Shown here piece after piece: positions 9,407 through 64,000 of a stretch of DNA of 64,000 nt (position 1 is its first letter; each line of letters opens with the position of its first letter). This DNA is from an uncultured Bdellovibrionales bacterium (GTDB lineage Bacteria > Patescibacteriota > Minisyncoccia > Moranbacterales > GWC2-37-73). Below the pieces are notes generated by a model. That model was not told the origin of the DNA, did no database searches, and saw only the letters and a program-made list of their open reading frames with translations. The translations under genes and the position numbers were made by a program. The DNA lies in contig CAZAFB010000006.1 of the NCBI GenBank assembly GCA_964484505.1, positions 14,337 through 78,336 of the forward strand. The letters are read 5' to 3'.

Positions 9407-10327
9407 ATGGGCATCAAAAAGAACAAAAACAGTCCAATTAAACTCACCGCCAAAGAAAAGAGGAACATAGCCATAATCGGCAGTGGCGTAGTTGGCAAAG
9501 CCACAGGCAAAGGCTTTATGGACATGGGTCACGATGTTGTTTTTGCCGACATCAACACAATCCTAGTCAATCAGCTTTCCAAAGAAAAACTGACTGCCTA
9601 TGAAATGGGTAACAACCACTTATTCGATGAAGATATTTATATAGTAAGCGTCCTAACACCTTTCATGAACGACTCTATTGAACTTCGCTTTATTGAATCA
9701 GCTGCCGCAAGTCTGGGAAATATTTTGAAGCAAAATAAAAAATGGCCGGTAATAATAATCCGCAGTACCGTCCCCCCGGGAACGATTGAAGAAATAATAA
9801 TACCTTTGATTGAACATTTTTCCGGAAAAAAAGTTGACGAAGACTTCGGCGTAGTCATGAATCCCGAATTTCTCAGAGAAGTAAGCGCAGAAAAAGATTT
9901 TCTCAATCCCTGGGTAGTCGTAATCGGCAGCAACAACTATCGGGCAACCAAAGTTATTGAATCCCTTTACAAACCCTTCGGGGCGCCCATATTCGCCATG
10001 AGCCTCAAGGAAGCAGAAATGCTTAAATATGTACACAATTTGTATAACGCCAACAAAATTTCTTTTTTCAATGAAATGCGTATGGTTGCGGAGTCCATAG
10101 GGGTCGATGCTGACAAAATTTTCTCGGCCGTGACCAAGAGCGCTGAAGGAATATGGAATCCAACATATGGAACCAGAAATTTCGGTCCCTTTGGCGGCAC
10201 CTGTCTACCCAAAGACACCAAAGTATTTTTGAACTGGACCCATGACAAACTGAAAAAGAAACTGCCCTTACTTCACGCCACTATAAAAGTAAACGAGGAA
10301 CTTAAAGAAAAAGAATACCTGGAATAA
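9407..10327 (+). CDS. UDP-glucose/GDP-mannose dehydrogenase family protein, apparently lacking the C-terminal UDP-sugar-binding domain
   Basis: N-terminal Rossmann IAIIGSGVVGKATG. Catalytic GGTCLPKD motif. The ORF stops about 40 aa after it, 2 nt before the next gene. Confidence 0.7.
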   Translation: MGIKKNKNSPIKLTAKEKRNIAIIGSGVVGKATGKGFMDMGHDVVFADINTILVNQLSKEKLTAYEMGNNHLFDEDIYIVSVLTPFMNDSIELRFIESAAASLGNILKQNKKWPVIIIRSTVPPGTIEEIIIPLIEHFSGKKVDEDFGVVMNPEFLREVSAEKDFLNPWVVVIGSNNYRATKVIESLYKPFGAPIFAMSLKEAEMLKYVHNLYNANKISFFNEMRMVAESIGVDADKIFSAVTKSAEGIWNPTYGTRNFGPFGGTCLPKDTKVFLNWTHDKLKKKLPLLHATIKVNEELKEKEYLE

Positions 10328-10328
10328 T

Positions 10329-13148
10329 ATGGAAAACTTTTGGACAAATATTTATACTCAACTGTCAACATCAGCATCCTTGATCGCTTTTTATGTTCCT
10401 TTGGGAATAATCGGCATCTGGCGCTGGAGCGTTTGGCTGATCAGAAAAATCGTTTCCCTCTTCTATCAAACGCCTATTGGCAACTTTTCCGGCACGCTTG
10501 CAATAATCACACCGGTATACAACGAAGATCCTTTATTTTTTAAAAAAGCGCTTCAATCATGGGCTCAAAACAAGCCGGATGAAATAATTGCCATTATCGA
10601 CTATTCGGATGAAACTTCTCTGGAAATATTCAGCAATTTTTCGCAAAAACACCCTGAGGCAAAACTCATTGTAACAAAAAAACCAGGAAAAAGACCCGCC
10701 TTGGCAGACGGCATCAGAGCCGCAAAAAGTGAAATTGTTGCCTTGGTGGACAGCGATACGGTTTGGGATAAGAACATCAAAAATCATCTCCTTGGGCCTT
10801 TTTCGGAAAGTTTAGTTGGTGGAATAACTATGCGACAAGATGTCCTCGAAACCGACACCTTGAGCAGAAAAATATTCAAATTTCATCTGGATAACCGCTA
10901 TCTGATTGAATATCCCTTTCTGGCAACAGTCAGTGACGCCCTGGCCTGCCTTTCCGGCAGAACAGCCCTGTATCGAAAATCGGCAATTATTAACTCACTT
11001 GATGATCTTGTAAATGAAACTTTTTTGGGTAAAAAAGTTATCAGCGGCGATGACAAATCACTGACCCATTTGATGCAGAAAAATGGTTGGAAAAGTAAAT
11101 ATTTGAGAGATGCGATCGTTCGCACCCCTGGATCGCCAAACATGCTGTTACTTTTCAAACAACAGCTTCGCTGGGCCAGAAATGCTTCCCGATCGGATAC
11201 TAAATTGATTTTTCAAAAGTGGCTCTGGAAAGAACACAAGGCCCTGGCGCTCTATCTGCTAGATAAATTCATCCAACCGTTTACCCTTCTCATAAGCGTC
11301 GCCTATTTCTTTTCTTCACTATTTTATGGAATTTGGCAAGCAGCCCTGTTAATATTCGCTTGGTGGATGATAAGTCGCGCCATCAAGATGTACCCCCACC
11401 TCAAAGAGAAGCCGTCGGATATCCTAATTCTCCCCTTATACATACCAATAACCTTTCTTACCGCACTGATACGGATATATGCTTTCATTTCCATGGACGA
11501 ACAAGGATGGATTACCAGATGGGATAAGACCAGGCTTGCAAGATTGCAATTAAAACACATGCTCAGTTCCCTTGCAGCAACTGCGGCAATCATCACAGGA
11601 ATATTTTTTGCCGTTGGAGCCTATAGGGAAGTCAAACTTACCGAACCAATTAAAAGAAACTTACCGGGCTACGAAAAAGTAACCGGCAAAGAAAAATCAA
11701 ATATTTTCACACCGCAACTGGCTCGTGCCGACAATCAGGAACTTTCCCAAAAGAAAGAACTTCTCCTGGAAAAGGCGAACCCCGATCCTTTCGGTTATTA
11801 TGTCATAAAAAGCGGCGATACCTATGAGAGTTTGTCGAAAAAATTCAACCTGGATCAAACGGCCAATTTGCTTGATCCCAAAAATAAGAATCCTCTGCCC
11901 AAAAATATTTTTTTGCAACAAGGTCAAAAAATAGCCGTCAAAACATCGGATTTACGCACTCCGATAAACACCACCATATTGACAACTAACCGATTTGCCA
12001 AACCTCCTCGCATAACCTATGACAAAACAAGCAATACCATATTCGTCATGGAAGGCGGGAGCGTAGCTAATCTTACCATCATAAGTAATGGCCTGCGTTT
12101 TATTAATCCAAATCTGCTTACTCAATCAAAAAAAGGCGAGTGGATTTTACGTGCCAATCTTTATGTCGGAAAAAATGTGACACTCGTACTTTCTGCAAAT
12201 GAAATATCCCTGCTCAAAATGAAGAGTGACCCTTCCGGCTTTATTTGGCTACTCAGCGAATCAGGCAATGTTTTGATATCTGGAATCAAAATATCATCAT
12301 GGAATGAGGAAATAAAAGCTCCAGATGAAGACATAAATGATGGAAGGAGCTACATAACAGCCAAGGACAGTGGTCGAATGGATGTGGTTAGATCAGACAT
12401 TGGATATCTTGGATATCCTGGTGCACCAAACAGGGGAGGTCCTTTCGGTGGCTCCTATGGCATTTCTTGGAAAATAAATAGCGGCGGCTTTGGAGATAAT
12501 TTACTTACTGGCGTTGTCCGAGAAAGCAGCTTTCACAATAATTATTTCGGCCTGTACACATTTGGCGCCACAGGAATGCTTATTGATAGCAATAAATTTT
12601 TCAAAAACATCGAATATGGACTTGATCCCCACGACGATTCCAATAACCTCCTGATTGTAAACAACATATCATACAACAATGGTAATCACGGTATTATCCT
12701 TTCCAAGCGGTGCTTCAATAACGTGATTGCGGAAAATATTTCCCATGATAACAGACTGCATGGCATAATGTTGGATCGTTCTTCAAACAATAACCTGGTC
12801 AGTGATAACATAATATACAATAATACCGATGGCATAGTACTATATGATTCTCATAGCAATGTAGTGTACAACAACAAGATTTATAACAACACCAAAGGCA
12901 TAAGAGCTAACGCCGGATCTTCTGAAAATTTCTTTGAAAATAATGAGATTAGCACCAACAACGTTGGCATATATTTATACGAAGGCGCGAAAATAAATAC
13001 CTTTTTAAATAATGACGTACGCGAAAATGAAGTTGGGATTGTTTTGAAAGATGCGGACAATAATATCTTGTTTGATAATCTGAAACCACTTGATAACAAA
13101 AAAGACGGACAAGTTACCGAAGATTCTCAAGACAACAATATCCAATAA
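10329..13148 (+). CDS. multidomain glycosyltransferase family 2 (membrane) - LysM - right-handed parallel beta-helix (PbH1 repeats) protein
   Basis: GT2 signatures (ITPVYNED, DSDT, QQLRWARN). LysM motif YYVIKSGDTYESLSKKFNL. C-terminal repeats NNISYNNGNHGIILS / NIIYNNTDGIVLYDS / NKIYNNTKGIRAN typical of pectate-lyase / AlgG-type beta-helices. Confidence 0.7.
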   Translation: MENFWTNIYTQLSTSASLIAFYVPLGIIGIWRWSVWLIRKIVSLFYQTPIGNFSGTLAIITPVYNEDPLFFKKALQSWAQNKPDEIIAIIDYSDETSLEIFSNFSQKHPEAKLIVTKKPGKRPALADGIRAAKSEIVALVDSDTVWDKNIKNHLLGPFSESLVGGITMRQDVLETDTLSRKIFKFHLDNRYLIEYPFLATVSDALACLSGRTALYRKSAIINSLDDLVNETFLGKKVISGDDKSLTHLMQKNGWKSKYLRDAIVRTPGSPNMLLLFKQQLRWARNASRSDTKLIFQKWLWKEHKALALYLLDKFIQPFTLLISVAYFFSSLFYGIWQAALLIFAWWMISRAIKMYPHLKEKPSDILILPLYIPITFLTALIRIYAFISMDEQGWITRWDKTRLARLQLKHMLSSLAATAAIITGIFFAVGAYREVKLTEPIKRNLPGYEKVTGKEKSNIFTPQLARADNQELSQKKELLLEKANPDPFGYYVIKSGDTYESLSKKFNLDQTANLLDPKNKNPLPKNIFLQQGQKIAVKTSDLRTPINTTILTTNRFAKPPRITYDKTSNTIFVMEGGSVANLTIISNGLRFINPNLLTQSKKGEWILRANLYVGKNVTLVLSANEISLLKMKSDPSGFIWLLSESGNVLISGIKISSWNEEIKAPDEDINDGRSYITAKDSGRMDVVRSDIGYLGYPGAPNRGGPFGGSYGISWKINSGGFGDNLLTGVVRESSFHNNYFGLYTFGATGMLIDSNKFFKNIEYGLDPHDDSNNLLIVNNISYNNGNHGIILSKRCFNNVIAENISHDNRLHGIMLDRSSNNNLVSDNIIYNNTDGIVLYDSHSNVVYNNKIYNNTKGIRANAGSSENFFENNEISTNNVGIYLYEGAKINTFLNNDVRENEVGIVLKDADNNILFDNLKPLDNKKDGQVTEDSQDNNIQ

Positions 13149-13155
13149 AATATGT

Positions 13156-13995
13156 ATGAAAAGTAAGATAGTAAATCTGTTGTTCATTGGCACCTATTTG
13201 ACTGCCATAGTTGCAGTGATCTTTTTCGCGACGCGTTCCGTTATCCAAAAAGAATCTTCACCAAAAGAAAAAGCTGAGCAAATAACCATTCCTGAAATCG
13301 CCGAATCCCCGTCTCCCTCCCAAGTCATAGCCCTCAGTTGCTGGAGTCTGACATTGCCCATCGAAGACATAAAAGACAGCAATCTTCCACTGACCGTACG
13401 ACAACCGGAGCTTGGAAATTTTTCATTTAGCCCATGGTTTGAAACAAACAAGGAATCGGACGGCGTGATCTTCAGGGCTCCAGTCAATGCCCCGACCACC
13501 AAAAATTCAGATTATCCCCGTAGTGAGCTACGAGAGACTGAATGCGGAGAAAATAAAAATAAATTTTGGTCATCCACAAACGGCACTCACTCACTCTATC
13601 TCGATCAAGCCATAACTGCCACTCCTAAAAATAAACCGGATGTAGTCGCTGGGCAAATACACGGCGATGACGATGATATTGTAACTATCAGATTGGAAGA
13701 TAAAAAATTATATGTGGCAAGAAACAAAAGCGATCTATGCGTCCTCGATGATAATTATTCTTTGGGGAAAAGATTCGGCGTGAAATTCGTCATAAAGGAT
13801 GGGCTTATCAGCATATATTATAACGACAATCCGCAATTCTCCTGTTCTTTAGAAAAAAAAGTTTCCAAAGCATATTTTAAAGCTGGAGCATATACCCAAT
13901 CTAATTGCAAAACTGAAGGGAAGCCAGAACTTTGCACTTCCAAAAATTACGGTGAGGTTGTGATATACGAAATCTCAATAACTCATTCTCATTAG
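13156..13995 (+). CDS. polysaccharide lyase family 7 (alginate-lyase-like) protein with N-terminal membrane anchor
   Basis: PL7 signature blocks RSELRE, QIHGDDDD and YFKAGAYTQSN. N-terminal TM helix. An alternative upstream start at 13090 overlaps the previous gene. Confidence 0.6.
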   Translation: MKSKIVNLLFIGTYLTAIVAVIFFATRSVIQKESSPKEKAEQITIPEIAESPSPSQVIALSCWSLTLPIEDIKDSNLPLTVRQPELGNFSFSPWFETNKESDGVIFRAPVNAPTTKNSDYPRSELRETECGENKNKFWSSTNGTHSLYLDQAITATPKNKPDVVAGQIHGDDDDIVTIRLEDKKLYVARNKSDLCVLDDNYSLGKRFGVKFVIKDGLISIYYNDNPQFSCSLEKKVSKAYFKAGAYTQSNCKTEGKPELCTSKNYGEVVIYEISITHSH

Positions 13996-14102
13996 AAAAA
14001 ACAACAACTCAATTCATACAACAAAAAGGCAAGGAAAAACCATTAACCGCTTCATCGCGCTCATTTTTTTCATTTGATCAATCTCATGTTTGTGTTCATT
14101 TT

Positions 14103-14462
14103 TTAGCCCATCCTTGGATGGCCATGCCCCATTGTAGATGATGCCGTGCCCGCCCAAATGGCTGCTATTACCAAAATTGCACCGACAACAAAACTATTCA
14201 AAAGAACTTTCGAGGTCATTGCAGCAAACACAAACGGGGACACAATTAGCCATACGCCCAAAAGACCGCTAACCCAGTTAATCCACATTGACGATCTCAC
14301 CGAGGAAATTTCAATGATTGAAAACAGGGTTATCAATACCCCCACAAAAAACATGCTACTCATAAACCCCGCGCTCATAAAAAGTGCGGAAAGTATCAAC
14401 CAAACCCCGGCGAACAAGCCAATCCAGCCAACTGTCAAAATTTTGTCCGATTTGCTCATCAT
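14103..14462 (-). CDS. small integral membrane protein (4 TM), His-rich C-terminus
   Basis: Hydrophobic segments throughout. Strong SD GAAGGAGGUG 7 nt upstream of the AUG. Confidence 0.5.
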   Translation of the reverse strand: MMSKSDKILTVGWIGLFAGVWLILSALFMSAGFMSSMFFVGVLITLFSIIEISSVRSSMWINWVSGLLGVWLIVSPFVFAAMTSKVLLNSFVVGAILVIAAIWAGTASSTMGHGHPRMG

Positions 14463-14550
14463 AAGCTTTTCACCTCCTTCTAATTTTATATGCTTTCAAA
14501 GTGTAATACACTCTTATTTTGCTTATATTCGGGACAAAAAGAAGTCGCAT

Positions 14551-14592
14551 GAAAAAAGTGGGATTCGCTCTTGCGAAAACCCACTTGAAAAT
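14551..14592 (-). terminator. intrinsic terminator on minus strand (AAGUGGG...CCCACUU hairpin plus UUUUUU)
   Basis: Minus-strand RNA AAGUGGGUUUUCGCAAGAGCGAAUCCCACUUUUUUCAUG. Confidence 0.55.
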
Positions 14593-14603
14593 TAAGAGGG
14601 GTC

Positions 14604-14886
14604 TGAGATTGCTTTAGCCTTGGATGGAATTAACGCGACATCTTTGCTTTTCGACTGTCTAAGTCTTAACACAAGAATTCCGCGAAATCCACCCTGATTC
14701 TCGTCAAAGACGATACTTGGGAATTTCCCTAGGCTGTCACTCGGCATCAAATAGAACTTGGGTTGCCCTGATTTGCCATGACGGGAGTCCCACAACCCTC
14801 GGGCAAACTTCGCCCAAGTTTGGGCTTTTCCCCTTTTCAGGGAATCACGTTTGTTTTGTTGCGCCCCCAAACCCCTCTTTATTTAA
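14604..14886 (-). ncRNA. candidate GC-rich structured RNA / riboswitch-like leader (~280 nt) closed by an 8-bp terminal helix
   Basis: About 50% GC in a 37% GC genome. 5' AGAGGGGU pairs with 3' ACCCCUCU. Many internal helices. Followed by a terminator, then a 95-nt spacer and an SD, then the membrane-protein gene on the same strand. Confidence 0.45.
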
Positions 14887-14935
14887 ATATAGCAATCAAT
14901 AATTATTTATCAACAAAGTTATCCACAAGCAACAC

Positions 14936-15880
14936 TTATACCTGGAGAAAATATCCTGAAAAACCTTGTTTTTTTCCAGCTGTTATTTCACCAACACCAA
15001 ACCATAATTTTGAATGAGAAAGAACATCTTCTCCGCAAACCAAAAGATTGCTAGCATCTTTAAACAATTCATAGTCAAGCTTAGTTTCCATTGAATATAT
15101 TCTTGGGATACTATCTTTATGAGATCTTGCGATATCAAAAACAAGACACTTGTTTCCTTTTTCGCTCAAAATTAAAAAACTGTGATTGCTTGGAAATTCA
15201 TCCGGATCTTCAATGTCATTCAAAATAATACCACTCATGTAGCTTGCCTCAATTCCAATTTTTCTGAGCACGTATTGACCCATGGCGGCCCTTTCAGCAC
15301 ATGCCGTTTTTCCAACCAAATCCGAGAGCTTTGGAATATTTTCATTGCTAAACAATTTAGATCTTTCGAAAGATTTTTCACCAGAATATTCTTCCACTCC
15401 AAGAATAACTTCAACTTTTCTTTGCACCTCCAATAAAGCATAAAATAAATACGGATCAAGATCACATTTTAACTTTTGTAAATATTCAACTACTTTTTCT
15501 TCCCATATCTCCATAAACGCTTCTTTCAATCGTGTTTCATTGGCCAGTTCCAGTTCTTTTTCAAAAGCATCGAAATCCAATTCCAAATACAATTCAAGCT
15601 CCTTTCTAAAAATAGACCCTCCTATTGGCAGCTTGTCCCCTGTTTTTAGCTCATCAGCCCAAATTCCACGATAAATATTCTTGATCCGCGTGTCATTTTC
15701 TTTATTTTCTAAAGCAATCTCATCTTCTGTCCTCTCTTCAATTGCTATGGAACTTTTTTGCTCTTGTTTGGCCGTGATAGTTTTTATAATTTCAGTACCA
15801 TTTTTTTCTGACATAATTTTATACTCAGAGTTTCTTATACTTTTTATTATATCATTAATATTAACTTCGTTCTCCCCCAA
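14936..15880 (-). CDS. transglutaminase-like cysteine-protease superfamily protein
   Basis: C-terminal motif GKTACAERAAMGQYVLRKIGIEASYMSGI matches the TGase core G-x-C-x-(D/E)-x-A...R..GI.ARYVSG, followed by His (NHSFLIL) and Asp (FDIARS). Confidence 0.45.
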   Translation of the reverse strand: MGENEVNINDIIKSIRNSEYKIMSEKNGTEIIKTITAKQEQKSSIAIEERTEDEIALENKENDTRIKNIYRGIWADELKTGDKLPIGGSIFRKELELYLELDFDAFEKELELANETRLKEAFMEIWEEKVVEYLQKLKCDLDPYLFYALLEVQRKVEVILGVEEYSGEKSFERSKLFSNENIPKLSDLVGKTACAERAAMGQYVLRKIGIEASYMSGIILNDIEDPDEFPSNHSFLILSEKGNKCLVFDIARSHKDSIPRIYSMETKLDYELFKDASNLLVCGEDVLSHSKLWFGVGEITAGKKQGFSGYFLQV

Positions 15881-17027: not shown

Positions 17028-17059
17028 AAAAAATAAGGCTACATAAAGCCTTATTTTAC
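17028..17059 (-). terminator. intrinsic terminator ending the tRNA/rpmG transcription unit
   Basis: Minus-strand RNA AAUAAGGCUUUAUGUAGCCUUAUUUUUUG. Confidence 0.55.
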
Positions 17060-17108
17060 TTGCACGGGGTGAGGGAATTTCCGCTTCCTTCGTCCGCCGT
17101 CGCGGACC
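17060..17108 (-). pseudogene. body-deleted pseudo-tRNA-Trp copy (3'-terminal 18 nt plus 5' flank only)
   Basis: tgcacggggtgagggaat is identical to 17274-17291 (tRNA-Trp 3' end), and is followed by ccttcgtccgccg..gcggac, which duplicates 17347-17368 upstream of the tRNA. The 49-nt tRNA body is missing. Confidence 0.5.
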
Positions 17109-17235
17109 CAGTTAATTGCCCTGGGCAGCGCCAAATGCTCGTCCGCATTTGTCGACGCTCACTGCGAAAATTCCCTGCTGAGAATTTTCTAGTTCGCTTC
17201 TGCCCATTCGATTCCCTTTTCACTTTCACACATAA
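17109..17235 (-). ncRNA. candidate GC-rich structured RNA 'segment 1' embedded in the tRNA operon
   Basis: Co-transcribed position. Paralogue of 17990-18176, with conserved hairpins (GAAAAUUC-UCAGCAGG-GAAUUUUC; CAAAUGC-N7-GCAUUUG) and partially compensatory changes between copies. Confidence 0.4.
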
Positions 17236-17271
17236 GCTAAAAACACACTCTGATTGGTGTGTTTTTAGCTT
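17236..17271. other. perfect 14-bp hairpin immediately 3' of tRNA-Trp
   Basis: agctaaaaacacac-tctgattg-gtgtgtttttagct. Confidence 0.5.
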
Positions 17272-17275
17272 AATG

Positions 17276-17346
17276 CACGGGGTGAGGGAATCGAACCCCC
17301 GCCAAAAGTTTTGGAGACTCTCGTTCTACCACTAAACTAACCCCGC
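17276..17346 (-). tRNA. tRNA-Trp (anticodon CCA), no encoded CCA end
   Basis: Folded by hand: acceptor GCGGGGU/ACCCCGU, anticodon loop CUCCAAA, T-loop GGUUCGAUUCC. Confidence 0.85.
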
Positions 17347-17417
17347 CTTCGTCCGCCGGAGCGGACTTCGGCGGGCAAGCCCGCATAGCCGCGAAGGCGG
17401 AATTTTCTATTTCAAAA

Positions 17418-17582: not shown

Positions 17583-17908
17583 GTTTGTCTGTGAGGTACG
17601 AGCAGCTACAAACATGAGCGTCCCGCACCAATTCTCTTATTAAAATCTAAATTATTTATTCACTAAGCCATAGGCGTTTCCGCGCGATAAAATGACAAAT
17701 ATCACTGACCAAATTCGGAATTTGGTGCGGGAGGCCATTCCTATTTTTTTTGTTGTCGGCTGGCAACTGCCAACAAACTTGGAGCCGCTTAGCGGGATTT
17801 CACGTCGTTATCACTCCTTGAAAACCCACGGTTTTCAAGACTTTCCTCCAACAGAAAACTCCCGTTTTCCGACCCTTTCCCTGTTCAATTCTTAACTCAA
17901 AAGAGTTG

Positions 17909-17989: not shown

Positions 17990-18176
17990 AATTAACTTAT
18001 AAAAAACAGCCTCGATGGATTTCCGCGTCGCTCATTTGCCGTCGCAAACGCGCTCCTTGTCCTGGGTAGCGCCAAATCCTCGCTTGCTCGAATTTGTCGG
18101 CGTTCGCTGCGGAAATTTCCTGCTGAAAATTTTCTAGCTCACTGCCACCCGTTCGAATCCCCTTTCACTATTCATA
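17990..18176 (-). ncRNA. candidate GC-rich structured RNA 'segment 2' between tRNA-Tyr and tRNA-Thr
   Basis: About 75% identical to 17109-17235, with shared hairpins. It sits inside the polycistronic tRNA unit. Confidence 0.4.
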
Positions 18177-53745: not shown

Positions 53746-54606
53746 TTATTCCAACGGACTTTTGATATTTTTCAGATTATTACTTGTGACTTTCGTGTAT
53801 ATTTGGGTCGTTTCCAGCTTTGCATGCCCCAAAAGCTCCTGGATATATCGTATATTAGTACCAGCTTCCAGTAAATGGGTGGCAAAAGAATGACGAAGCG
53901 TATGGCAAGAAACCTTTTTCATTATTTCAGCTTCTTCGGCAGCTTTCTTCACAATCTTCTCGGCACTTTCAGAAGTCAGATGTCCATTGCCTTGCGCCCC
54001 GGTGAACAAATAGTCCGCAGGTTTCTTTAGCAGCATCTGTCTTTTCAAAATAGGTATTAATTTTTCAGATAAAAGCGTGCAGCGATCTTTCTGTCCTTTC
54101 CCGCATCGCACCAGAATAAGGCCTCTATCCAAATCAAAATCACGCATTCGTATCTTGATAACCTCACTCACACGAAGTCCGGCCGAATACATTAGCGAAA
54201 TCAAAAAATGATGCTTGGGATTTGTCGTCACCGCAAGCATTCTTTGGATTTCCTCCTTACTAAGAACGGTCGGTAAATAGTTGGTCTTTTTGGCACATTT
54301 TATGTCAAAAAAGAACTTCCTATTGAGCACTTCCCGATAATAGAATTTCAAGGCATTAAGCGCAACATTTAACGTGGAACTTGCGCAACCTCTGTCTATT
54401 ATCGATTCCAAATATTTTCGAATATCATCATTCGTTACCTCCTTTGGGCTCTTTTTTATAAACTCCAAAAAAAGCCTATTGTAAAGCAAATATGATTCAG
54501 TTGTTCTTCTGCTAAAACCGCGAATCTTTAATTCCCTCTCCAAATTATATACATATTCTCTTTCTTCTGTGGTTTTTCTGCTATTTTTATGATAATATGT
54601 ATTCAT
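53746..54606 (-). CDS. tyrosine site-specific recombinase, XerC/XerD-like
   Basis: R..KGxKDR..HTLRHSFATHLL..GHAKLETTQIYTKV (catalytic Y). There is no IntI-specific insertion. Confidence 0.85.
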   Translation of the reverse strand: MNTYYHKNSRKTTEEREYVYNLERELKIRGFSRRTTESYLLYNRLFLEFIKKSPKEVTNDDIRKYLESIIDRGCASSTLNVALNALKFYYREVLNRKFFFDIKCAKKTNYLPTVLSKEEIQRMLAVTTNPKHHFLISLMYSAGLRVSEVIKIRMRDFDLDRGLILVRCGKGQKDRCTLLSEKLIPILKRQMLLKKPADYLFTGAQGNGHLTSESAEKIVKKAAEEAEIMKKVSCHTLRHSFATHLLEAGTNIRYIQELLGHAKLETTQIYTKVTSNNLKNIKSPLE

Positions 54607-54717
54607 AAGGCGTTATGATTACATCAAAATTATACCATGACACCCAATCTAAGCCAACAATTTAACTAGTAAGCATAAAAGGAGTTATGTGAAATTAATT
54701 TTTCCGCCCAAAAATAC

Positions 54718-55323
54718 ATGAAAGAAGAATTTAAAAAAATTTGGGAAATAGCCCTCCCTTATCAAGACAAACGAGACGATAAAGGTCATGCCAGAATTGT
54801 AACTGAATATGCTATTAAACTATGCGAGACTGAGAGCGTTAACGACATGATTATTGTTCCGGCTGCCATTTTACATGATATAGGCTGGAGTCAGCTTCCC
54901 AAGGAAGATTGGCAAGTTATTTTTGACCCAAACAAAACGCCGGAAATGGAATATGCGGTACGTATAAAGCACCAAGACGAGGGTGTGAAGTTAGCAGAAA
55001 AAATACTTAACGAAGCAGGCTATTCCCCAAATTTTTTTAAACCCATATTGGAAATTATCTCTCAGCACGACACCAGAAAAAAATTTTTTTCAGATGAAGA
55101 CGGTGCTATGCGTGATGCAGACAAGTTGTGGCGTTACTCCAAGACAGGTTTTGAAGCCGACCTTAAGCGAAATAATTTCACGTTCGATTTTCTTTATGAC
55201 AAAATGATGAAGCGGATTGATGAAAAAAATTTTTTCTTCTTCGAGTCAGCCAAGGATATTGCCAAGAACGAGCTTAATGATAGAAAGGAAGAATTTTTGG
55301 GCGGAAAAATTAACATCACATAA
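54718..55323 (+). CDS. HD-domain phosphohydrolase
   Basis: H...HDIG...D motif (AAILHDIGWSQL). Confidence 0.7.
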   Translation: MKEEFKKIWEIALPYQDKRDDKGHARIVTEYAIKLCETESVNDMIIVPAAILHDIGWSQLPKEDWQVIFDPNKTPEMEYAVRIKHQDEGVKLAEKILNEAGYSPNFFKPILEIISQHDTRKKFFSDEDGAMRDADKLWRYSKTGFEADLKRNNFTFDFLYDKMMKRIDEKNFFFFESAKDIAKNELNDRKEEFLGGKINIT

Positions 55324-55383
55324 CGGCTCGTATCAGGTTCCAGAAATTTGCTCAATTATATTTCAAGGAGTACAAATTTCTTC

Positions 55384-55637
55384 CACCCAAATTTTTGCCT
55401 CTCTTTTTCTTTTATATTACACTAAGGAAGAGGGCCAAAAACTTCTGATACAAGCGAACGTTCAGCGCCATCGCTCGCTTCGCTCACTCTGGCACTGAAC
55501 GGGCGCAGCTTGACAGCCTCATTCGTCACTGCCGCATCGCTCCGCTCGCGACAGCGCCGAACTCGGCTTATGCGAAATAATTGTCACCACGCTAAGGCGT
55601 GGCTCCAATTACATCGCATACGCCGCGCCCGTTATGT
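55384..55637 (+). repeat. GC-rich structured intergenic repeat, copy A (~250 bp)
   Basis: The core cgttcagcgccatcgctcgcttcgctcactctggcactgaacgggcgcagc...gcgtggctccaattacatcgcatacgccgcgcccgttat is nearly identical to copies at 60862-61096 and 63213-63466. Confidence 0.85.
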
Positions 55638-55818
55638 GAAATAAAATTCTTTTTCTTTTTTAAATTTGCTTTTTTATAATAAGGAAAAATAAGTTTTTTT
55701 ATCTTTTATAGAGGGGTATAAGGTGTCTTTTTTGCTCCTGGAATCGCAAAAAAGACGATTTTATTTTTATTATAAAATACGCTATAATATATGCAGTTAA
55801 ATCTGCTATTATTAAATT

Positions 55819-57483
55819 ATGCCAAAGCTTAAAGATATCCCAAAATTTGATCGCCCCAGAGAGAAATTTCTGGAAAAAGGGCCTGATGCGCTAACTGATA
55901 GCGAGCTTTTGGCTATTTTGCTTGGTAGCGGAATCAAGGGGACGAATGTAAAGGTATTGTCACAAAAGATTTTAAGGAAATTTGGTGATAATTTGTTAAA
56001 TGTCTCGGTCGATGACTTAATGCAAGTTTCGGGAATCGGACAGGCGAAAGCATTGCAAATTTCATCGGCACTTGCTTTGACGAGAAGGATTTTTAACAAG
56101 CAAAACTCCCTGGATAATTTGATTTTATCTGCGCAAGACGCTGTCGCTCTTGTTTCGGATTTGAAGGATAAAAAGCAAGAACATCTGATTTGCCTTTATC
56201 TCAATGCTCGCAATGCCTTGATAAAAAAAGAGACAATTTCAATTGGCACCCTTGATAAAAGCATTATTCATCCAAGAGAAATTTTCGCCCCAGGACTGGA
56301 AATGCACGCCGCAGGAGTGATACTTGTCCATAATCATCCTTCCGGTGATTCAAGTCCAAGCGAGCAAGATAAACAAGTTGCAAAAAGAATTATTGAAGCA
56401 GGTCAATTGATGGGCGTAAATGTTGTTGATTTTCTGATTGTAGCAAAAAACGGAGTACATAGCATACTTGGTGATCTAAAAAATACCGAGCTGACGAACA
56501 CGGAATATGTCGCAGAAGGATCTCAAGCTTCTCTGTTCGATTTATTGGTAGATGCAAATCAATCATATTTTTATAACAAAAACTCAATGATACAAAAGAA
56601 AAACAATAAATTGAAATTCATAGATTTATTTGCGGGAATTGGCGGTTTTCATATAGCATTTCACAATGCTGGAGCAGAATGTGTCTTCGTGTCCGAGTGG
56701 GACGGACCTGCTCAAAAAACATACAGACACAATCTTTACAAGGTTTCTCCCGAAATGTTTGATTCCGGAAATTTTATCGGAGATATTACGAAAGTTAAAC
56801 CTAAAGATATCCCTGATTTTGATATTTTGACTGCGGGATTTCCTTGTCAGCCATTTTCTCAGGCCGGTTTTAAAAAAGGGTTTAGCGAAACTCGCGGAAC
56901 TTTGTTTTTTGATATTGTAAATATTATAAAAGAAAAAAAACCAAAGGCTTTTTTTCTGGAAAATGTACGTGGCTTATTGAGTCATGACGATGGAAAGACA
57001 TTTAAAACCATAGAAAGAATTATCAAGGAGGAGTTGGGATATTCTTTTTTCCCTCAAGTAGTTAAGGCTTCCGATTTTGGCTTGCCGCAACATCGCCCAC
57101 GTCTTTTTATGGTTGGATTCAAAGATAAAACGATACATTTCAAGTTTCCCGAGCCAGTGAAAGAACTAAAATACACCTTGTCGGATATATTCAACGGAAA
57201 ATGCGATAAAGACATTGGATTTACTTTGCGTGTTGGTGGGCGCGGAAGCAAAATAACCGATCGTAGAAATTGGGATGCTTATCGAGTTAATGGAAAAATT
57301 GTTCAGCTTGGACCGAAAGAAGGATTAAAAATGCAGGGCTTTCCCGATTGGTACGAATTTCCACCGAACTTCTCAAGAGTTCAAGCCATGAAACAACTTG
57401 GCAATTCTGTTGCCGTCCCTGCAATTCAAGCGGTGGCCGAGGAAATTGTTAAAACATTAAAAAAACATGGAAAAAGGAAATAA
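55819..57483 (+). CDS. RadC-like JAB/MPN domain fused to C5-cytosine DNA methyltransferase
   Basis: N-terminus: DSELLAILLGSG...HNHPSG (RadC/UPF0758). C-terminus: FAGIGGF (motif I), GFPCQPFSQAG (motif IV), ENVRGL (motif VI). Confidence 0.8.
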   Translation: MPKLKDIPKFDRPREKFLEKGPDALTDSELLAILLGSGIKGTNVKVLSQKILRKFGDNLLNVSVDDLMQVSGIGQAKALQISSALALTRRIFNKQNSLDNLILSAQDAVALVSDLKDKKQEHLICLYLNARNALIKKETISIGTLDKSIIHPREIFAPGLEMHAAGVILVHNHPSGDSSPSEQDKQVAKRIIEAGQLMGVNVVDFLIVAKNGVHSILGDLKNTELTNTEYVAEGSQASLFDLLVDANQSYFYNKNSMIQKKNNKLKFIDLFAGIGGFHIAFHNAGAECVFVSEWDGPAQKTYRHNLYKVSPEMFDSGNFIGDITKVKPKDIPDFDILTAGFPCQPFSQAGFKKGFSETRGTLFFDIVNIIKEKKPKAFFLENVRGLLSHDDGKTFKTIERIIKEELGYSFFPQVVKASDFGLPQHRPRLFMVGFKDKTIHFKFPEPVKELKYTLSDIFNGKCDKDIGFTLRVGGRGSKITDRRNWDAYRVNGKIVQLGPKEGLKMQGFPDWYEFPPNFSRVQAMKQLGNSVAVPAIQAVAEEIVKTLKKHGKRK

Positions 57484-58555
57484 TAAAGGAGAATGGTCGG
57501 AATTTTACGCTTTCCTAAAAATATTAGATGAAAGAAAAATTTTTGCCGCTGATAAAAATCTCGAAATAATTGACGGGAAATTTTTTGTTTTTCATAAAAT
57601 TATCAGGGAGGAAAAAGATGAATCGACTAAAATTTACGATATTTCCCAGTCGGCAACTCAAGTCTTGATAACCGATGAGGATGGTAGGCTATTGAAAGAG
57701 TTTAAAACCGATTCACTCAAGGAAAAAACTTTAAAAATATTTGAAAGAATAAAAAACGAAAAAAGTCGTTCTTTCAATATTCCCGAAGCGCAAGAGTTGA
57801 TGAAAGAATTGCTTTGCACAAAAGTCAAAGCCAGCAATGCAAAAAAAGCCGATTTAGTGGCGATTATTTACGATAGAATTTCAAAAACAATGCCAATGCT
57901 CGGTTTTTCCATAAAGTCCATGGTCGGTGGTGCCTCCACATTGTTGAATCCCGGGCAAACAACAAATTTCATTTATGAAATTAAAGGATTCAGTGGGAAT
58001 GTTTCAGAAGTTAATGCAATTCAAACAAAAGCTCAAATTCGCGACCGTGTAAGAAAAATTGCGGAGCAAGGCGGAACTTTTGAATACATGGGTGTTTCAA
58101 ATGAACAATTTGGATTCAATATGAAAATGATTGACACAGTGTTGCCTGAATTTATAGCCCAAATGCTTTTGGACTTTTTTTCAAACTCACACAGAACGGT
58201 TGCTGATTTGACAAAAGAGCTGTCCGAGAATGAGAATATCAATAAAAAATTTGGTTTATCGCTGACAAATTATGAATACAAAATTAAAAACTTTCTGGAT
58301 GCGGTTGCGCTCGGAATGGTGCCAAGTAAACCATGGGACGGATTTTCAAAGGCACACGGAGGTTATATTGTGGTAAAAGAAAACGGCGATGTTGTTTGCT
58401 ATCACTTGTATAACAGAGATGAGTTTCGTTCCTATTTATATGAAAATACCAGATTTGATGCACCAAGCACGACCAGGTATGGCTATGGTGAATTATATGA
58501 AGAAAATGGCAAACTGTTTTTTAAATTGAATTTGCAAATCAGGTTTTTGAAATAA
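57467..58555 (+). CDS. type II restriction endonuclease (HpaII-like family, tentative)
   Basis: Position between the m5C MTase and vsr. N-terminus NKGEWSEFYAFLKIL resembles the HpaII REase family. Confidence 0.5.
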   Translation: MEKGNNKGEWSEFYAFLKILDERKIFAADKNLEIIDGKFFVFHKIIREEKDESTKIYDISQSATQVLITDEDGRLLKEFKTDSLKEKTLKIFERIKNEKSRSFNIPEAQELMKELLCTKVKASNAKKADLVAIIYDRISKTMPMLGFSIKSMVGGASTLLNPGQTTNFIYEIKGFSGNVSEVNAIQTKAQIRDRVRKIAEQGGTFEYMGVSNEQFGFNMKMIDTVLPEFIAQMLLDFFSNSHRTVADLTKELSENENINKKFGLSLTNYEYKIKNFLDAVALGMVPSKPWDGFSKAHGGYIVVKENGDVVCYHLYNRDEFRSYLYENTRFDAPSTTRYGYGELYEENGKLFFKLNLQIRFLK

Positions 58556-58562
58556 AACGGGT

Positions 58563-58967
58563 ATGGCTGATATTTTTTCCAAAAAGAAGCGCAGTGAGAT
58601 AATGTCAAAAGTTAGAAGTAAAGACAGTAAGATAGAAGTTGAATTTCGGAAAAAATTGTGGAAAGCGGGATTCCGTTATCGTAAAAACTCAACAAAATAT
58701 TTCGGCAAGCCTGACATTGTTTTGCCGAAATACAAAACCGTAATTTTCATAGATTCTTGTTTTTGGCACGGATGCAAAAAACACAGCTCAATACCCAAAA
58801 CTCGAAAAAAATTTTGGGAAACAAAAATTGAACGCAATAGAGAAAGGGACCAGGAGGTTAGTAAATATTACAAAAAACAGGGTTGGAATATATTTAGAAT
58901 TTGGGAACATAATTTGAAAAATGATTCAGAAAAGGTTTTGAATATAATTTTAGAAAAAATTATTTAG
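58563..58967 (+). CDS. vsr: very-short-patch-repair endonuclease
   Basis: FIDSCFWHGC motif. Confidence 0.85.
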   Translation: MADIFSKKKRSEIMSKVRSKDSKIEVEFRKKLWKAGFRYRKNSTKYFGKPDIVLPKYKTVIFIDSCFWHGCKKHSSIPKTRKKFWETKIERNRERDQEVSKYYKKQGWNIFRIWEHNLKNDSEKVLNIILEKII

Positions 58968-58968
58968 C

Positions 58969-60666
58969 ATGAAGCTTAAAAAAATTGTTATACAAAATTT
59001 TAAATCGATTATAAATGATGAGGTTATTTTTAATGACTTCACTTTTTTTGTTGGAAAAAATAATTATGGGAAGTCTAATTATTTAAGAGCGGTTGACCAT
59101 TTGCTTAGTTTTTCAAAAACATACGGAAATGTCAAAGAAATTCAAAATAATAAGGAAAACCCAATTGTTATTGACGGATGGTTTGAGGGTGTAGAAAAAT
59201 ATACGCCACAGCTGAAAGACAGTAAACACAAAGAGGCTGTTGAAAAATTAATTAACAGTGACAATTTAATTCAGTTGCGTTTAACTATAAACTTAGACGG
59301 TCAAGGCGAAACATCTCTTATTGATCCTTCAAATAGTGAAACCGTAAATCCGACTGGTTGGTCAACAAACTGTAAAAAGTTATTTCCAGAAACTATTTTT
59401 ATTCCTGCTACTGCAGACACTGCTGACGAACTGCAAGAAAAAGCTTCAACAGCATTATCAAAAATAAAAAAAGAAGTAATGCAACAGTTTTTTACTTCCT
59501 TATCGTCAAAGATTGATACAGCATTTGAGCCAATCGATAAATTTTTACATGGCGAAGAAAAAGACAGATCGGAAGATTTAAAAAATCTAGAAAATGATTT
59601 TGCTGAAGAAATGATGGGTGAATTTTCTACAACAAAGCCATCAATAAAATTCACTTTGCCAGACTCAAGTTTTATCGGCAAAGGAATGAAAATTAACCTT
59701 CATGATGGGTTTCACGATTGCGATATTGAGCAAAAAGGACATGGACTCCAGAGAACGGCTCTCTTTGCTTTAATTCGTCTTTTATCCAAGCACAATTCTT
59801 CAAGCCAAACAAAACCAGCACCAATATTTTTAATTGAAGAACTGGAAGCGTTTTTGCATCCATCTGCTCAAAAAAGATTAGCTGAAAGCATGGAAAAAAT
59901 GGCTGGAAAATATCAAACAATTGCAACAACCCATTCACCATTCGTTTTGACCGAAAAGCTTTTGGGCGGTTATAGAAAAATATTTCGTAATGATAAAGAA
60001 GGATCCAAGTGTTGCGGACCACAGAAAAATCATGATGAATTTAAAAAGAAAGACTATGATGTCGTTAAAAATTCTTTATCGCACACTGGAAATTTAATAA
60101 GTCTGTTTTCAGACATTGTGGTAGTTGTTGAAGGAAGGGAGGATAGCGGTTTTTATCCAACCGTATTGGAATTATTGAAAAAAGAAGAAAACGGACTAGT
60201 TTCCTTTGTCGAAACTGTTGGGGGAGGAAATAGTAATTTTCATGTATCGTATAACTTTTTCAAACTTATGGGATTCAAGAAAATTTTTGTTATCTGTGAT
60301 TTGGATTGTCTCTTTGATACAAATTTTAAGGAGTTGTTAAAAACTGTTTCTGTTGACTCTGATTTTATTGATGATTTTAGGAAAGATATCGGCTTTTCTG
60401 GTGCTGGACAGCCAGGAACGGAGTTTGTTTTATCAAATATTGAAAAAATTGATAATAAAAAAATAACAGATAAAATTTCTGAGTTGGCAAAAATAAATAT
60501 TTTTGTATTAAAAAATGGAACACCGGAAAATTATTATTCAGATGATTTCAAAAAGGACAATAGCGCAAGAAATGTTAAAAAAATATGGGAATATTTAACA
60601 AGCAAAGAAGATTTGAAAAACATAGAAGAGCTAGGTAGTATCATGAATCCGATTTTAAATTCATAA
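58969..60666 (+). CDS. OLD-family ATP-dependent nuclease (ABC-type ATPase plus Toprim)
   Basis: N-terminal IQNFKSI...FVGKNNYGKSNYLRAV (AAA_15/21). Q-loop and signature regions. C-terminal Toprim VVVEGREDSGF...FVICDLD. Confidence 0.7.
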   Translation: MKLKKIVIQNFKSIINDEVIFNDFTFFVGKNNYGKSNYLRAVDHLLSFSKTYGNVKEIQNNKENPIVIDGWFEGVEKYTPQLKDSKHKEAVEKLINSDNLIQLRLTINLDGQGETSLIDPSNSETVNPTGWSTNCKKLFPETIFIPATADTADELQEKASTALSKIKKEVMQQFFTSLSSKIDTAFEPIDKFLHGEEKDRSEDLKNLENDFAEEMMGEFSTTKPSIKFTLPDSSFIGKGMKINLHDGFHDCDIEQKGHGLQRTALFALIRLLSKHNSSSQTKPAPIFLIEELEAFLHPSAQKRLAESMEKMAGKYQTIATTHSPFVLTEKLLGGYRKIFRNDKEGSKCCGPQKNHDEFKKKDYDVVKNSLSHTGNLISLFSDIVVVVEGREDSGFYPTVLELLKKEENGLVSFVETVGGGNSNFHVSYNFFKLMGFKKIFVICDLDCLFDTNFKELLKTVSVDSDFIDDFRKDIGFSGAGQPGTEFVLSNIEKIDNKKITDKISELAKINIFVLKNGTPENYYSDDFKKDNSARNVKKIWEYLTSKEDLKNIEELGSIMNPILNS

Positions 60667-60861
60667 TACAATACTACAATAAGGAGTTTTTGTTTTTGGG
60701 CATTCACCCCTTACCCCTCTGCCCAAAATCAAAAACAAAAAAACTTATTTATCATTTAGAATAAAAGCAAATTTAAAAAAGAAAAAGAATTTTACATCAC
60801 ATAACAAGGCATATCCGGTTCAAAAATTTTGCACTTTATAATAAAATCAAGGAAAGCAAAA

Positions 60862-61096
60862 TTTTCTCTCCCAAATTTTTCTTCCGCTAAGCTACAGAAA
60901 AACTTCGGATATGCCTAACGTTCAGCGCCATCGCTCGCTTCGCTCACTCTGGCACTGAACGGGCGCAGCTTGACAGCCTCATTCGTCACTGCCGCATCGC
61001 TCCGCTCGCGACAGCGCCGAACTCGGCTTATGCGAAATAATTGTCACCACGCTAAGGCGTGGCTCCAATTACATCGCATACGCCGCGCCCGTTATG
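60862..61096 (+). repeat. GC-rich structured intergenic repeat, copy B
   Basis: See copy A. Its 5' AT-rich part is shorter. Confidence 0.85.
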
Positions 61097-61208
61097 CGCA
61101 ATCGCAAAAAACCTCTCTTTATTAATTCATTTAATAATTTTGGCGAAATGCGGATGCAGGTCGAGAATAACTCAAATGTAATAGATAATTAATTTAAGTA
61201 AAAAATTT

Positions 61209-61685
61209 ATGAGTGAAAAAATGATGGGGCTAGAACAAGTTGGCCCAAATAAAGAGCACTTGCAAAGAGCCACGGATTTTAAAAATGTAAGAGAAAATGC
61301 ATTAGAAGATAGGCGCGAAGCAAAGATAGAAACCTCAATTGAATTAAAGAAATTTAATCCCTGGCAAAAAGATACTGAACAATGGCAGCAATTTGAAGAT
61401 TTCTGCCACGAAGAACTTCCAAAATATGAAGCCTTTGTTAATGAGAATGCAAAAAAGATAATTGCAGAACTTCTCCATGCTGGCACGCAAGTCACAGAAA
61501 ATCCAGATTATGATGGCTATAAAAGTTTTGACATACTTGATCAGAGTGGTCTTGTGGCTCATTTTGATGGGGGATGGGTTGATGCTGGTGATTGGGATAA
61601 GGGATATGCATTTCATTTATCAGGCTTTACGCCGACTCAACAAACAGCAGCAGTAAAATGGATAGTAAAATTTGAAGAAAAATAA
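61209..61685 (+). CDS. hypothetical protein
   Basis: ORF only. Confidence 0.35.
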   Translation: MSEKMMGLEQVGPNKEHLQRATDFKNVRENALEDRREAKIETSIELKKFNPWQKDTEQWQQFEDFCHEELPKYEAFVNENAKKIIAELLHAGTQVTENPDYDGYKSFDILDQSGLVAHFDGGWVDAGDWDKGYAFHLSGFTPTQQTAAVKWIVKFEEK

Positions 61686-61821
61686 ATCGCCAAAATTATA
61701 AATGCAGAAATACAATTAAGGAATGAGGCTTTTCGCGACAGCGTATAACAGCCCATATCTGGCTACAGGAAATTTCAAAATCTATTTTAATCCTCTTTTA
61801 TTAAAGCAATTTTTCATAAAA

Positions 61822-62475
61822 ATGAATAAGGAACAAATCGTAAATCAAACTGCTGACTATATCAAAACTAAACTCACCGGCGAAGGTTCTGGTCATGACT
61901 GGTGGCATGTTTATCGTGTGTGGAAAAATGCTGTTCACATTGGCAAACATGAAAACGCAGATTTGTTCGTCGTTGAACTTGCTGCGTTATTACACGATAT
62001 TGCTGATTGGAAATTCAACGATGGCAATGACGATGTCGGTCCGCAGTTGGCAAGAGAGTGGCTAGAAAAATTAGAGGTTGATGAGGCGGTGATTTCTCAT
62101 GTTTGCCAAATCATCAAAGACGCTTCGTTCAAGGGAGCGGGCGTCATGACCGAGATGAAAACAATCGAGGGTATGGTTGTTCAAGACGCTGATCGATTAG
62201 ACGCGATTGGTGCTATTGGAATTGCTAGAACCTTCGCCTACGGTGGTGCGAAAGGACGAGAAATGTATAATCCCGAAATTAAACCTGAAAAACACGAATC
62301 TTTTGAGCAGTACAAAAACAATCAAAGTCACACAGTGAATCATTTTTATGAAAAATTGCTACTCTTGAAAGAATTGATGAATACTGAAACTGCGAAAAAA
62401 ATTGCCGAGAAGCGACATAAAGTGATGGAAGAATTTTTAGACGAATTCTTTCAAGAGTGGGAAGGAAAGGATTAA
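61822..62475 (+). CDS. HD-domain phosphohydrolase
   Basis: GHDWWHVYRV...LLHDIADWKF...DADRLDA. Confidence 0.65.
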   Translation: MNKEQIVNQTADYIKTKLTGEGSGHDWWHVYRVWKNAVHIGKHENADLFVVELAALLHDIADWKFNDGNDDVGPQLAREWLEKLEVDEAVISHVCQIIKDASFKGAGVMTEMKTIEGMVVQDADRLDAIGAIGIARTFAYGGAKGREMYNPEIKPEKHESFEQYKNNQSHTVNHFYEKLLLLKELMNTETAKKIAEKRHKVMEEFLDEFFQEWEGKD

Positions 62476-62485
62476 AACAAATTTT

Positions 62486-62560
62486 GAAAATTTTCCTCCG
62501 CTCAAATTTTCCTTCACTACGTTTCGGAAAACTTCAGATATGTACAAACGTTAGACAAAA
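62486..62560 (+). repeat. partial copy (5' part only) of the GC-rich repeat family
   Basis: ctcaaattttccttcactacgtttcggaaaacttcagatatgtacaaacgtt, then diverges. Confidence 0.5.
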
Positions 62561-62797
62561 TTTTGCCGATAATTGTTTTGTAAAAAATGTTTGTGCTGGT
62601 AAAAAAGTATTTTGAAATAATAAAATTTGATATATAAAATCGGCAAAACATCGTCTAACACTGTGTACCTGGTTTCATGAAAAGGAATTCAACAAATAAT
62701 CTTTACAATTTCAAATGCCATTTTTTGGGATTTTTTGGGAAAAGAAAACGGCCTTCAGTTTTGGCTGAAGACCGTCGTGTGCAAATTCTCGCACATT

Positions 62798-63988: not shown

Positions 63989-64000
63989 GTTTATTCCTCC

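Follow-up and report, generated by a model that had tools for sequence, protein, structure and literature searches.

An RNA resembling a miniature 23S rRNA domain I in a strain-variable cassette of an uncultured Patescibacteriota bacterium

Binding sites that mimic ribosomal RNA (rRNA) occur in the leaders of ribosomal-protein operons, for example in the E. coli S10 leader, which is bound by uL4, and in the L1, L10, L20 and S15 leaders. Orphan rRNA fragments and pseudogenes are typically contiguous, recent copies. Separate pieces of the large-subunit (LSU) rRNA are also found in fragmented rRNAs, such as bacterial 23S rRNAs cleaved at intervening sequences (IVS) or the mitochondrial rRNAs of Plasmodium (PMC3382252), whose pieces sum to a complete functional rRNA. 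Here we describe an RNA element, RNA-A, that bears some likeness to each of these systems. It lies in a 64,000-nucleotide (nt) stretch of DNA from an uncultured Bdellovibrionales bacterium (lineage Patescibacteriota; Minisyncoccia; Moranbacterales; GWC2-37-73 in the GTDB taxonomy), taken from positions 14,337 to 78,336 of the forward strand of contig CAZAFB010000006.1 (assembly GCA_964484505.1); this whole stretch is called the window, and all positions are counted from its first letter unless another contig is named. RNA-A is best read as an orphan, miniaturised paralogue of the core of 23S rRNA domain I, corresponding roughly to E. coli nt 215-455 (helices H12-H22).

With bacterial 23S rRNA (Rfam family RF02541) RNA-A shares the order and the sequence of the domain I motifs from H12 to H22, including the AGCC/GGCU pairing of H14, the H15 hairpin and the motifs GGGUUGUGGGAC, GUGACAGCC and CCAAGGCUAAA, but it falls short in score, in completeness and in its H13 loop, it lies outside an rRNA operon, and it differs by having promoter-like and terminator signals of its own as well as a terminal helix. 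Like orphan rRNA fragments it shows rRNA homology outside the operon, has lost essential elements and varies among strains, whereas its truncations and its insertion preserve the fold, a helix closes it and transcription signals stand at its ends. The logic that we propose for RNA-A is that of the rRNA-mimicking leaders, namely the presentation of an rRNA-like protein-binding site outside the ribosome. However, in those leaders the likeness is short and local and resides in the 5' leader of the operon that is regulated, whereas RNA-A is a 284-nt homologue of a subdomain that would act in trans, without a ribosomal-protein gene next to it. Finally, RNA-A resembles fragmented rRNAs in being a separate LSU piece, but it is without essential elements and dispensable between strains.

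Homology to domain I of 23S rRNA

When RNA-A was scanned alone, as a segment of 301 nt, it matched the Rfam family LSU_rRNA_bacteria (RF02541) on the minus strand with 25.4 bits (E 3.9e-6), in a 5'-truncated local alignment that spans model positions 195-470 of 2925. Scanning the 301 nt alone loosens the Rfam filters, and the LSU match appeared only then: the whole window at gathering thresholds returned four transfer RNAs (tRNAs) and nothing else, and an 801-nt scan at E up to 10 returned only noise. The two sequences are collinear, beginning with AACAAAACAAACGUGAUUCCC against AAaAGAAAgcAAaagcGAuuCC, the H13 stem, AGCCCAAAC (preceded by GAUUCCC...GGGGAA) and a 7-base-pair (bp) hairpin of the H15 type, and continuing with GGGUUGUGGGAC, GUGACAGCC, CCCAAGUA, a short hairpin of the H21 type and GAAUCAGGGUGGA...CCAUCCAAGGCUAAA. 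Helix H14 is formed exactly as in the LSU model, by AGCC (14826-14823) pairing with GGCU (14619-14616), and the consensus of the model at the H14/H15 position reads aGcCcAAAC followed by a hairpin. The order of motifs is the same in alignments with E. coli 23S rRNA and with two LSU genes from viral contigs (L025 and L049; such L numbers are our labels for contigs). Against domain I of one of these two viral-contig sequences the semi-global alignment score reaches z = 6.0 over shuffles; with E. coli it reaches z = 1.7 only, and that alignment has a gap at the H15-type hairpin. The features assigned to RNA-A are as follows.

14595-14878, minus strand: RNA-A, the miniature 23S rRNA domain I-like RNA (284 nt, 48.9% GC); RF02541 match, fold z-scores and guided fold
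14865-14878, minus strand: 5' strand of the terminal helix, AGAGGGGUUUGGGG; pair probabilities 0.72-1.0, no 23S counterpart
14829-14843, minus strand: H13-like stem UCCCU/GGGGA with a GAAAA cap; 13-column deletion in the RF02541 alignment
14798-14826, minus strand: AGCC (5' strand of H14), CAAA and the H15-like 7-bp hairpin CUUGGGC...GCCCGAG; RF02541 alignment and guided fold
14719-14797, minus strand: GGGUUGUGGGAC (junction and H16) and a compact H18-H20-like junction that includes GUGACAGCC; RF02541 alignment and guided fold
14701-14713, minus strand: shortened H21-like hairpin UCGUC-UUU-GACGA; RF02541 alignment and guided fold
14622-14694, minus strand: H22-like hairpin GGGUGGA/UCCAUCC with a 60-nt helical extension; pair probabilities 0.89-1.0
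14612-14621, minus strand: AAGGCUAAAG, with the conserved 23S motif CCAAGGCUAAA, which gives the 3' strand of H14; RF02541 alignment and alignments with real LSU sequences
14595-14608, minus strand: 3' strand of the terminal helix, UCUCAGACCCCUCU; pairing and shuffle test

In a structure guided by 23S rRNA all 77 of 77 pairs are canonical, nine of them G.U, a count that is not independent because one C.A position was omitted and the inserted arm was drawn from the minimum free energy (MFE) fold. The part that is kept best is the junction of H14-H16, H18-H20 and H22, and a compact version of the uL4/uL24 region, including the GUGACAGCC hairpin, is retained in RNA-A. In E. coli, the smallest region to which uL24 and uL4, two early assembly proteins, bind is H18-H20 (nt 281-359; PMC6426284). 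We regard it as very probable that RNA-A is derived from domain I of 23S rRNA.

RNA-A nevertheless departs from a working 23S rRNA in many respects. Only about 9% of the molecule is present, 284 nt compared with six domains and ~2.9 kb. In place of the H13 loop AGUAGCGGCGAGCGAA, which does not vary among the three LSU sequences that we aligned nor, to our knowledge, anywhere in life, RNA-A has GAAAA. H21 is reduced to 5 bp and a triloop, compared with 9 bp and a 7-nt loop in the consensus, while the insert of the H22-type hairpin has grown to 61 nt from 4 in the model and folds as one irregular helical arm. The GAGGAAAAGAAA stretch, normally invariant, carries several changes, and the two ends of the RNA are joined by a helix that has no 23S equivalent.

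Searches by pattern returned no further copy: a gapped DNA pattern that describes an H22-like hairpin interrupted by 40-70 nt had no match in metagenome contigs, and the pattern AGCCCAAAC...GGGTTGTGGGA had none in viral contigs. The universal H13 loop motif was found at 40 loci of the viral contigs, of which only L025 and L049 are real LSU genes, neither of them close to RNA-A.

Fold, end signals and strain distribution

The original prediction, made from the sequence alone, had described a GC-rich structured RNA with many internal hairpins, closed by the pairing of its ends on the minus strand and followed by an intrinsic terminator. The observation is real and is confirmed here with small corrections. 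RNA-A is indeed GC-rich (48.9%), but the background is 40.0% over the window and not the 37% that had been given; the adjoining cassette and intergenic DNA have ~30-39% GC. The structure is likewise confirmed, with fold z-scores of about -5.6 to -5.9 relative to shuffles: a 346-nt stretch that includes the terminator folds with an MFE of -125.5 kcal/mol (z = -5.55; none of 100 shuffles was as good), and for the 284-nt core z is -5.9 with the minus strand, compared with -3.1 with the plus strand. A frame of 92 amino acids (aa) within RNA-A (14592-14870, minus strand), which had been judged implausible as a gene, matches no Pfam family, and its only relatives among 5.8 billion proteins are the same locus of the same species, so that this judgement holds as well.

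The terminal helix, formed by AGAGGGGU and ACCCCUCU, is even longer than first described, with an uninterrupted run of 14 pairs (14878-14865 with 14608-14595), which an A-U pair can extend to 15. When the two 61-nt flanks were shuffled 5000 times, a helix of such length arose twice (P ~4e-4), and since three of its pairs are G.U, it exists only in the RNA of the minus strand. The signals that flank it are the following.

14886-14913, minus strand: promoter-like site with TTGATA (14913-14908), a 16-nt spacer and TATATT (14891-14886); 10 of 12 positions match
14552-14586, minus strand: intrinsic terminator, a two-tier 12-bp hairpin (14586-14556) followed by U6; from sequence and fold

The spacer of the promoter-like site contains an extended -10 TG (14894-14893). 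The site ends 7 nt upstream of the helix, and the start predicted from it, ~14879, is the first base of the terminal helix. The terminator (14586-14552), whose presence is upheld, reads AAGUGGG..UUCGC-AAGA-GCGAA.CCCACUU and then six U; a simple terminator scanner missed the hairpin because of its internal loop, so it was read from the sequence and the fold. In the MFE fold it stands as a separate hairpin that starts 8 nt past the closing helix.

One further pairing touches the 3' strand of the terminal helix. The 14 nt of RNA-A at 262-275 (CUAAAGCAAUCUCA; window 14604-14617), which overlap that strand, have a complement without mismatch inside the coding region of the 314-aa gene that lies upstream on the same strand (15709-15722), and we estimate that ~0.02 such 14-nt pairs are expected by chance in a region of 3.1 kb. 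This complementarity could be due to chance, or it could reflect a long-range pairing that competes with the terminal helix.

Downstream of RNA-A and on the same strand lies a gene for an SPW membrane protein (Pfam PF03779; 14103-14462), and upstream of it are two open reading frames (ORFs).

14463-14551, minus strand: own leader of the SPW gene (89 nt), with a TGTATTA -10-like box and GGAGG at 14477-14473; conserved in L003, L008 and L016
14936-16964, minus strand: two ORFs of 313 aa and 314 aa, without Pfam match

The two ORFs, RNA-A and the terminator together make up a block of ~2.5 kb (17052-14553). The region is unchanged in a series of contigs that come from many samples and belong to the same species (L001, L002, L004-L007, L010, L011, L058, L059 and L061-L063), whereas two others, L003 and L008, have an identical SPW gene and identical upstream DNA to ~14552-14558 and are without RNA-A and both ORFs. 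L003 is overlapped perfectly over 1799 nt by L060, whose identity with the window is 99.6% as far as 17273, where tRNA-Trp ends; together the two represent a second strain type. Thus, the block is an insertion/deletion polymorphism within the species. In a related species, the one that a scan of genome contigs with the 939-aa neighbour protein returned (L016; CAZCMV010000001.1), nucleotide identity is 72% over window 9456-14544; the alignment stops at 14544, and a small membrane-protein gene occupies the place of RNA-A upstream of the SPW gene. The SPW leader, ~82-96 nt before the start codon and with TGTATTA and GGAGG, is kept in L003, L008 and L016. As it is conserved there without RNA-A, RNA-A is not part of the leader. 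Nor does RNA-A accompany the 314-aa protein as a rule: six homologues of this protein were found, and in the three long contigs examined no comparable RNA follows the gene. Between the 314-aa ORF and RNA-A there is no terminator.

Two observations on individual contigs belong to this comparison. In the second strain type an island of ~10.7 kb, extending from L060 9120-18974 into L003 1-2650, sits exactly at the 3' end of tRNA-Trp and encodes an AAA_11/AAA_12-PLD-zinc-ribbon helicase, a 517-527-aa protein, HEPN_AbiU2 and small ORFs; it is followed by a degenerate copy of the tRNA end, a hairpin, a second GC-rich element (RNA-B, described below) and then directly by the SPW gene, in a strain that has no RNA-A cassette. 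The other concerns L009 (1-140), a contig that begins inside RNA-A and shows 17 differences there, mostly G/C to A/T changes within G or C runs. All of them are confined to the terminal 140 nt at a contig end with 2.8x coverage, adjoined by 3.6 kb of perfect identity. Nine of the substitutions break pairs and one pair is compensatory. The variant was inspected for covariation, but its differences are probably a contig-end error and it was set aside; if real, they would represent a decayed allele.

A possible rRNA mimic and its alternatives

The reading that we favour, to which we assign a probability of roughly 0.45, is that RNA-A is a functional, independently transcribed small RNA that derives from 23S rRNA and mimics the early-assembly core of domain I. 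That it is a separate functional transcript at all, whatever its role, we consider slightly more probable than the opposite. RNA-A would be transcribed from its own TTGATA-16-TGnTATATT site, to which read-through from the 314-aa gene may contribute, and transcription would stop at the hairpin-U6 terminator, yielding a stable RNA of ~290-330 nt that would not enter ribosomes. It would fold like the early-assembly nucleus of domain I, that is, the junction of H14-H16, H18-H20 and H22 with what in E. coli are the primary sites of uL24 and uL4, and as a molecular mimic it may bind or titrate a protein that binds domain I. We infer that the protein is most plausibly uL24 or uL4, yet a role as such a decoy is doubtful. 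More doubtful still is the fuller scenario in which the strain-variable cassette encodes a trans-acting, self-closing domain I decoy that sequesters uL24/uL4 or another factor that binds domain I; sequestration of this kind would tune or protect ribosome assembly.

Nearly as likely as the favoured reading is that RNA-A is an inert relic, a decaying fragment of a former or duplicated 23S gene that resides in the 3' untranslated region (UTR) of the 314-aa gene and whose terminal helix and promoter-like site are fortuitous. RNA-A occurs in one species only and is absent from the sister strain and the sister species; lacking the universal H13 loop and with otherwise invariant GAGGAAAAGAAA positions changed, it cannot function as part of a ribosome. 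A truncated second copy of tRNA-Trp is found in the same region together with leader pieces that have been duplicated, no terminator separates the 314-aa ORF from RNA-A, and the nine pair-breaking substitutions of L009 would add to the picture of decay if that contig end is real. However, these differences are confined to a contig end of low coverage and are probably errors. The 15-bp end-to-end helix is improbable by shuffles, is strand-specific by virtue of its G.U pairs and brackets the homologous block; no retained helix is broken, whereas the conserved single-stranded parts have changed; the inserted 60 nt fold as a single coherent helical arm; GC is still 49% amid AT-rich DNA; and a promoter-like signal and a terminator are placed at the 5' and 3' ends. 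All of these argue for a functional RNA. Several findings weigh against it. The RF02541 score is half of the 50-bit gathering score and thus misses the threshold, and the LSU match was missed by the scan of the whole window at gathering thresholds and by the 801-nt scan at E up to 10. A search of the window by nhmmer with the E. coli, L025 and L049 rRNAs gave no match, nor did blastn against plasmids, so that the homology is visible only to a profile or structure model. With the 92-aa ORF as probe, scans of proteins, viral contigs and metagenome contigs returned no homologue outside the species, and hence there is no covariation support for RNA-A. The cassette has no counterpart at this site in the 99.8%-identical L060/L003 strain, which makes RNA-A dispensable at least at this site. 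Promoter-like sites are near chance frequency in such AT-rich DNA (three seen compared with 2.5 expected per 1.2 kb), so only the exact placement of the one predicted for RNA-A counts. Deletions of hairpin loops and tips leave shorter hairpins, so the truncations need no selection. The neighbours of RNA-A are the two ORFs without family match and the SPW membrane protein; no ribosomal-protein gene adjoins it. Debris of stable-RNA genes, such as the truncated tRNA-Trp copy, lies nearby.

The remaining explanations are far less probable than either a functional mimic or a relic. It is very improbable that RNA-A is a true ribosomal piece that supplies the domain I segment of a split 23S rRNA in trans, as might be imagined from its homology to one uninterrupted part of domain I, from the promoter-like and terminator signals that it has of its own, the resemblance of its end-pairing helix to a processing stem and the fact that interrupted 23S genes are common among bacteria of the candidate phyla radiation (CPR) (PMC11270868). 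Its H13 loop is deleted and its H21 shortened, the cassette is absent at this locus from the near-identical L060/L003 strain, and we would expect the ends of such a fragment to pair with other fragments and not with each other. Moreover, no other rRNA piece reaches the gathering score within the 64 kb, so RNA-A is not one of the exons of an interrupted 23S gene. Nor is it simply a reduced 23S rRNA, since the losses recorded in a survey of CPR 23S rRNAs are limited to H9, H63, H78 and H98 (PMC9297842). A riboswitch or transcription attenuator of the SPW gene, the architecture that the original prediction had proposed, is just as remote. RNA-A does lie upstream of this gene on the same strand with a terminator between them, and the ribosome-binding site that had been predicted is present as GGAGG in the 89-nt spacer. 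However, the SPW gene keeps its own leader in L003, L008 and L016, all of them without RNA-A, RNA-A is homologous to rRNA, no riboswitch family emerged at E up to 10 in the 801-nt and 301-nt scans, and no alternative pairing that would disrupt the terminator was seen in a search that was not systematic. The architecture proposed first therefore falls, and an independent structured small RNA is the only one of the three options named at the outset that survives. Equally hard to sustain are a diverged housekeeping RNA, be it RNase P RNA, transfer-messenger RNA (tmRNA), signal recognition particle (SRP) RNA or 6S RNA, and a real 92-aa protein gene. CPR RNase P RNAs are often missed at default thresholds, and very weak hits of ~5 bits, beyond the reach of the present scans, have been used for them (PMC8172020); moreover, AGCC/GGCU near the ends of RNA-A superficially resembles the P4 helix, but AGCC/GGCU is helix H14 of the LSU model, and a threading of RNase P P1-P4 by eye was dropped once this became clear. 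The P4 motifs CR-I (GAGGAAAGUCC) and CR-V (ACAGAANCCGGCUUA) are absent from the RNA-A sequence, no such housekeeping family was found at E up to 10 in either the 801-nt or the 301-nt scan, ARAGORN reports only four tRNAs in the window and no tmRNA, and RNA-A is dispensable in the sister strain; the 92-aa ORF has neither a family nor homologues beyond its own species. The lack of a match to tmRNA, RNase P, SRP and riboswitch classes had already been noted by inspection, and Rfam at E up to 10 and ARAGORN agree with it. A comparison with Rfam had been suggested at the time, with RNase P, tmRNA and 6S in mind: these three are indeed unmatched, but the LSU rRNA family is matched, below its gathering score.

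If RNA-A is expressed and functional as an rRNA mimic, the bacterium has converted a whole rRNA subdomain into a free-standing small RNA, and we know of no earlier case of this in a bacterium. Domain I is the first part of 23S rRNA to be transcribed, and RNA-A would provide a natural handle on the partitioning of early large-subunit assembly proteins, for which a comparison could draw on existing strains, some that carry the cassette and some that lack it. Should the decoy scenario be true, RNA-A would represent a hitherto undescribed type of regulatory RNA derived from rRNA. If it is a relic instead, it serves as a warning that a GC-rich island that folds well within an AT-rich genome can be a remnant of rRNA which standard Rfam searches miss.

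Other structured and mobile features of the window

RNA-B (17051-17279, minus strand; L003 2652-2880) is another GC-rich element, of ~165-230 nt, that comes directly after tRNA-Trp and a hairpin of 16 perfect bp. It has a paralogue, 76% identical, behind tRNA-Tyr (18019-18174, minus strand). The last part of RNA-B is an 18-nt stretch identical to the 3' end of tRNA-Trp (17061-17078 = 17274-17291), and RNA-B also repeats the leader hairpin of tRNA-Trp (17087-17107 compared with 17346-17366), so from its sequence it looks like a duplicated leader with an internally deleted tRNA-Trp. It folds well (z ~-5) and has no Rfam match; the idea that it might be a second rRNA-like piece was rejected, as it has no similarity to rRNA.

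Between tRNA-Thr and rpmG there are ~260 nt of non-coding DNA (17640-17900, minus strand) with GGAGGAAAGUC, which is like CR-I of RNase P, and UAUGGCUUAGUG. The segment has no Rfam match at E up to 10 and a fold z of only -3.1; it may represent a diverged RNase P RNA or the leader of rpmG, or it may be nothing. A PD-(D/E)XK endonuclease gene (PF11645; 18320-18724, minus strand) lies between tRNA-Thr and tRNA-Tyr, and in this tRNA cluster a contig of one strain carries an additional ORF for a GIY-YIG endonuclease (L065 3815-4096). Both look like genes of the homing-endonuclease type placed among stable-RNA genes.

Towards the end of the window, 53746-63462 are organised like an integron. The gene of a 286-aa tyrosine recombinase (53746-54606, minus strand) points away from an array on the plus strand, in which three identical GC-rich repeats of ~185 nt (55448-55632, 60906-61092 and 63283-63462) stand between cassettes. 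Each repeat begins with AACGTTCAGCGCC and ends with GCGCGCCCGTTAT; its fold as single-stranded DNA has z = -4.1, and it has no Rfam match. The cassettes are of the defence type and encode HD proteins, a RadC-Dcm methylase, a HpaII endonuclease, Vsr and an OLD-family ATPase. After the third repeat the GC content rises to ~59% (63530-64000), in a segment with a 130-aa ORF (63596-63988, minus strand) that has no Pfam match, a composition which suggests that this DNA is foreign.

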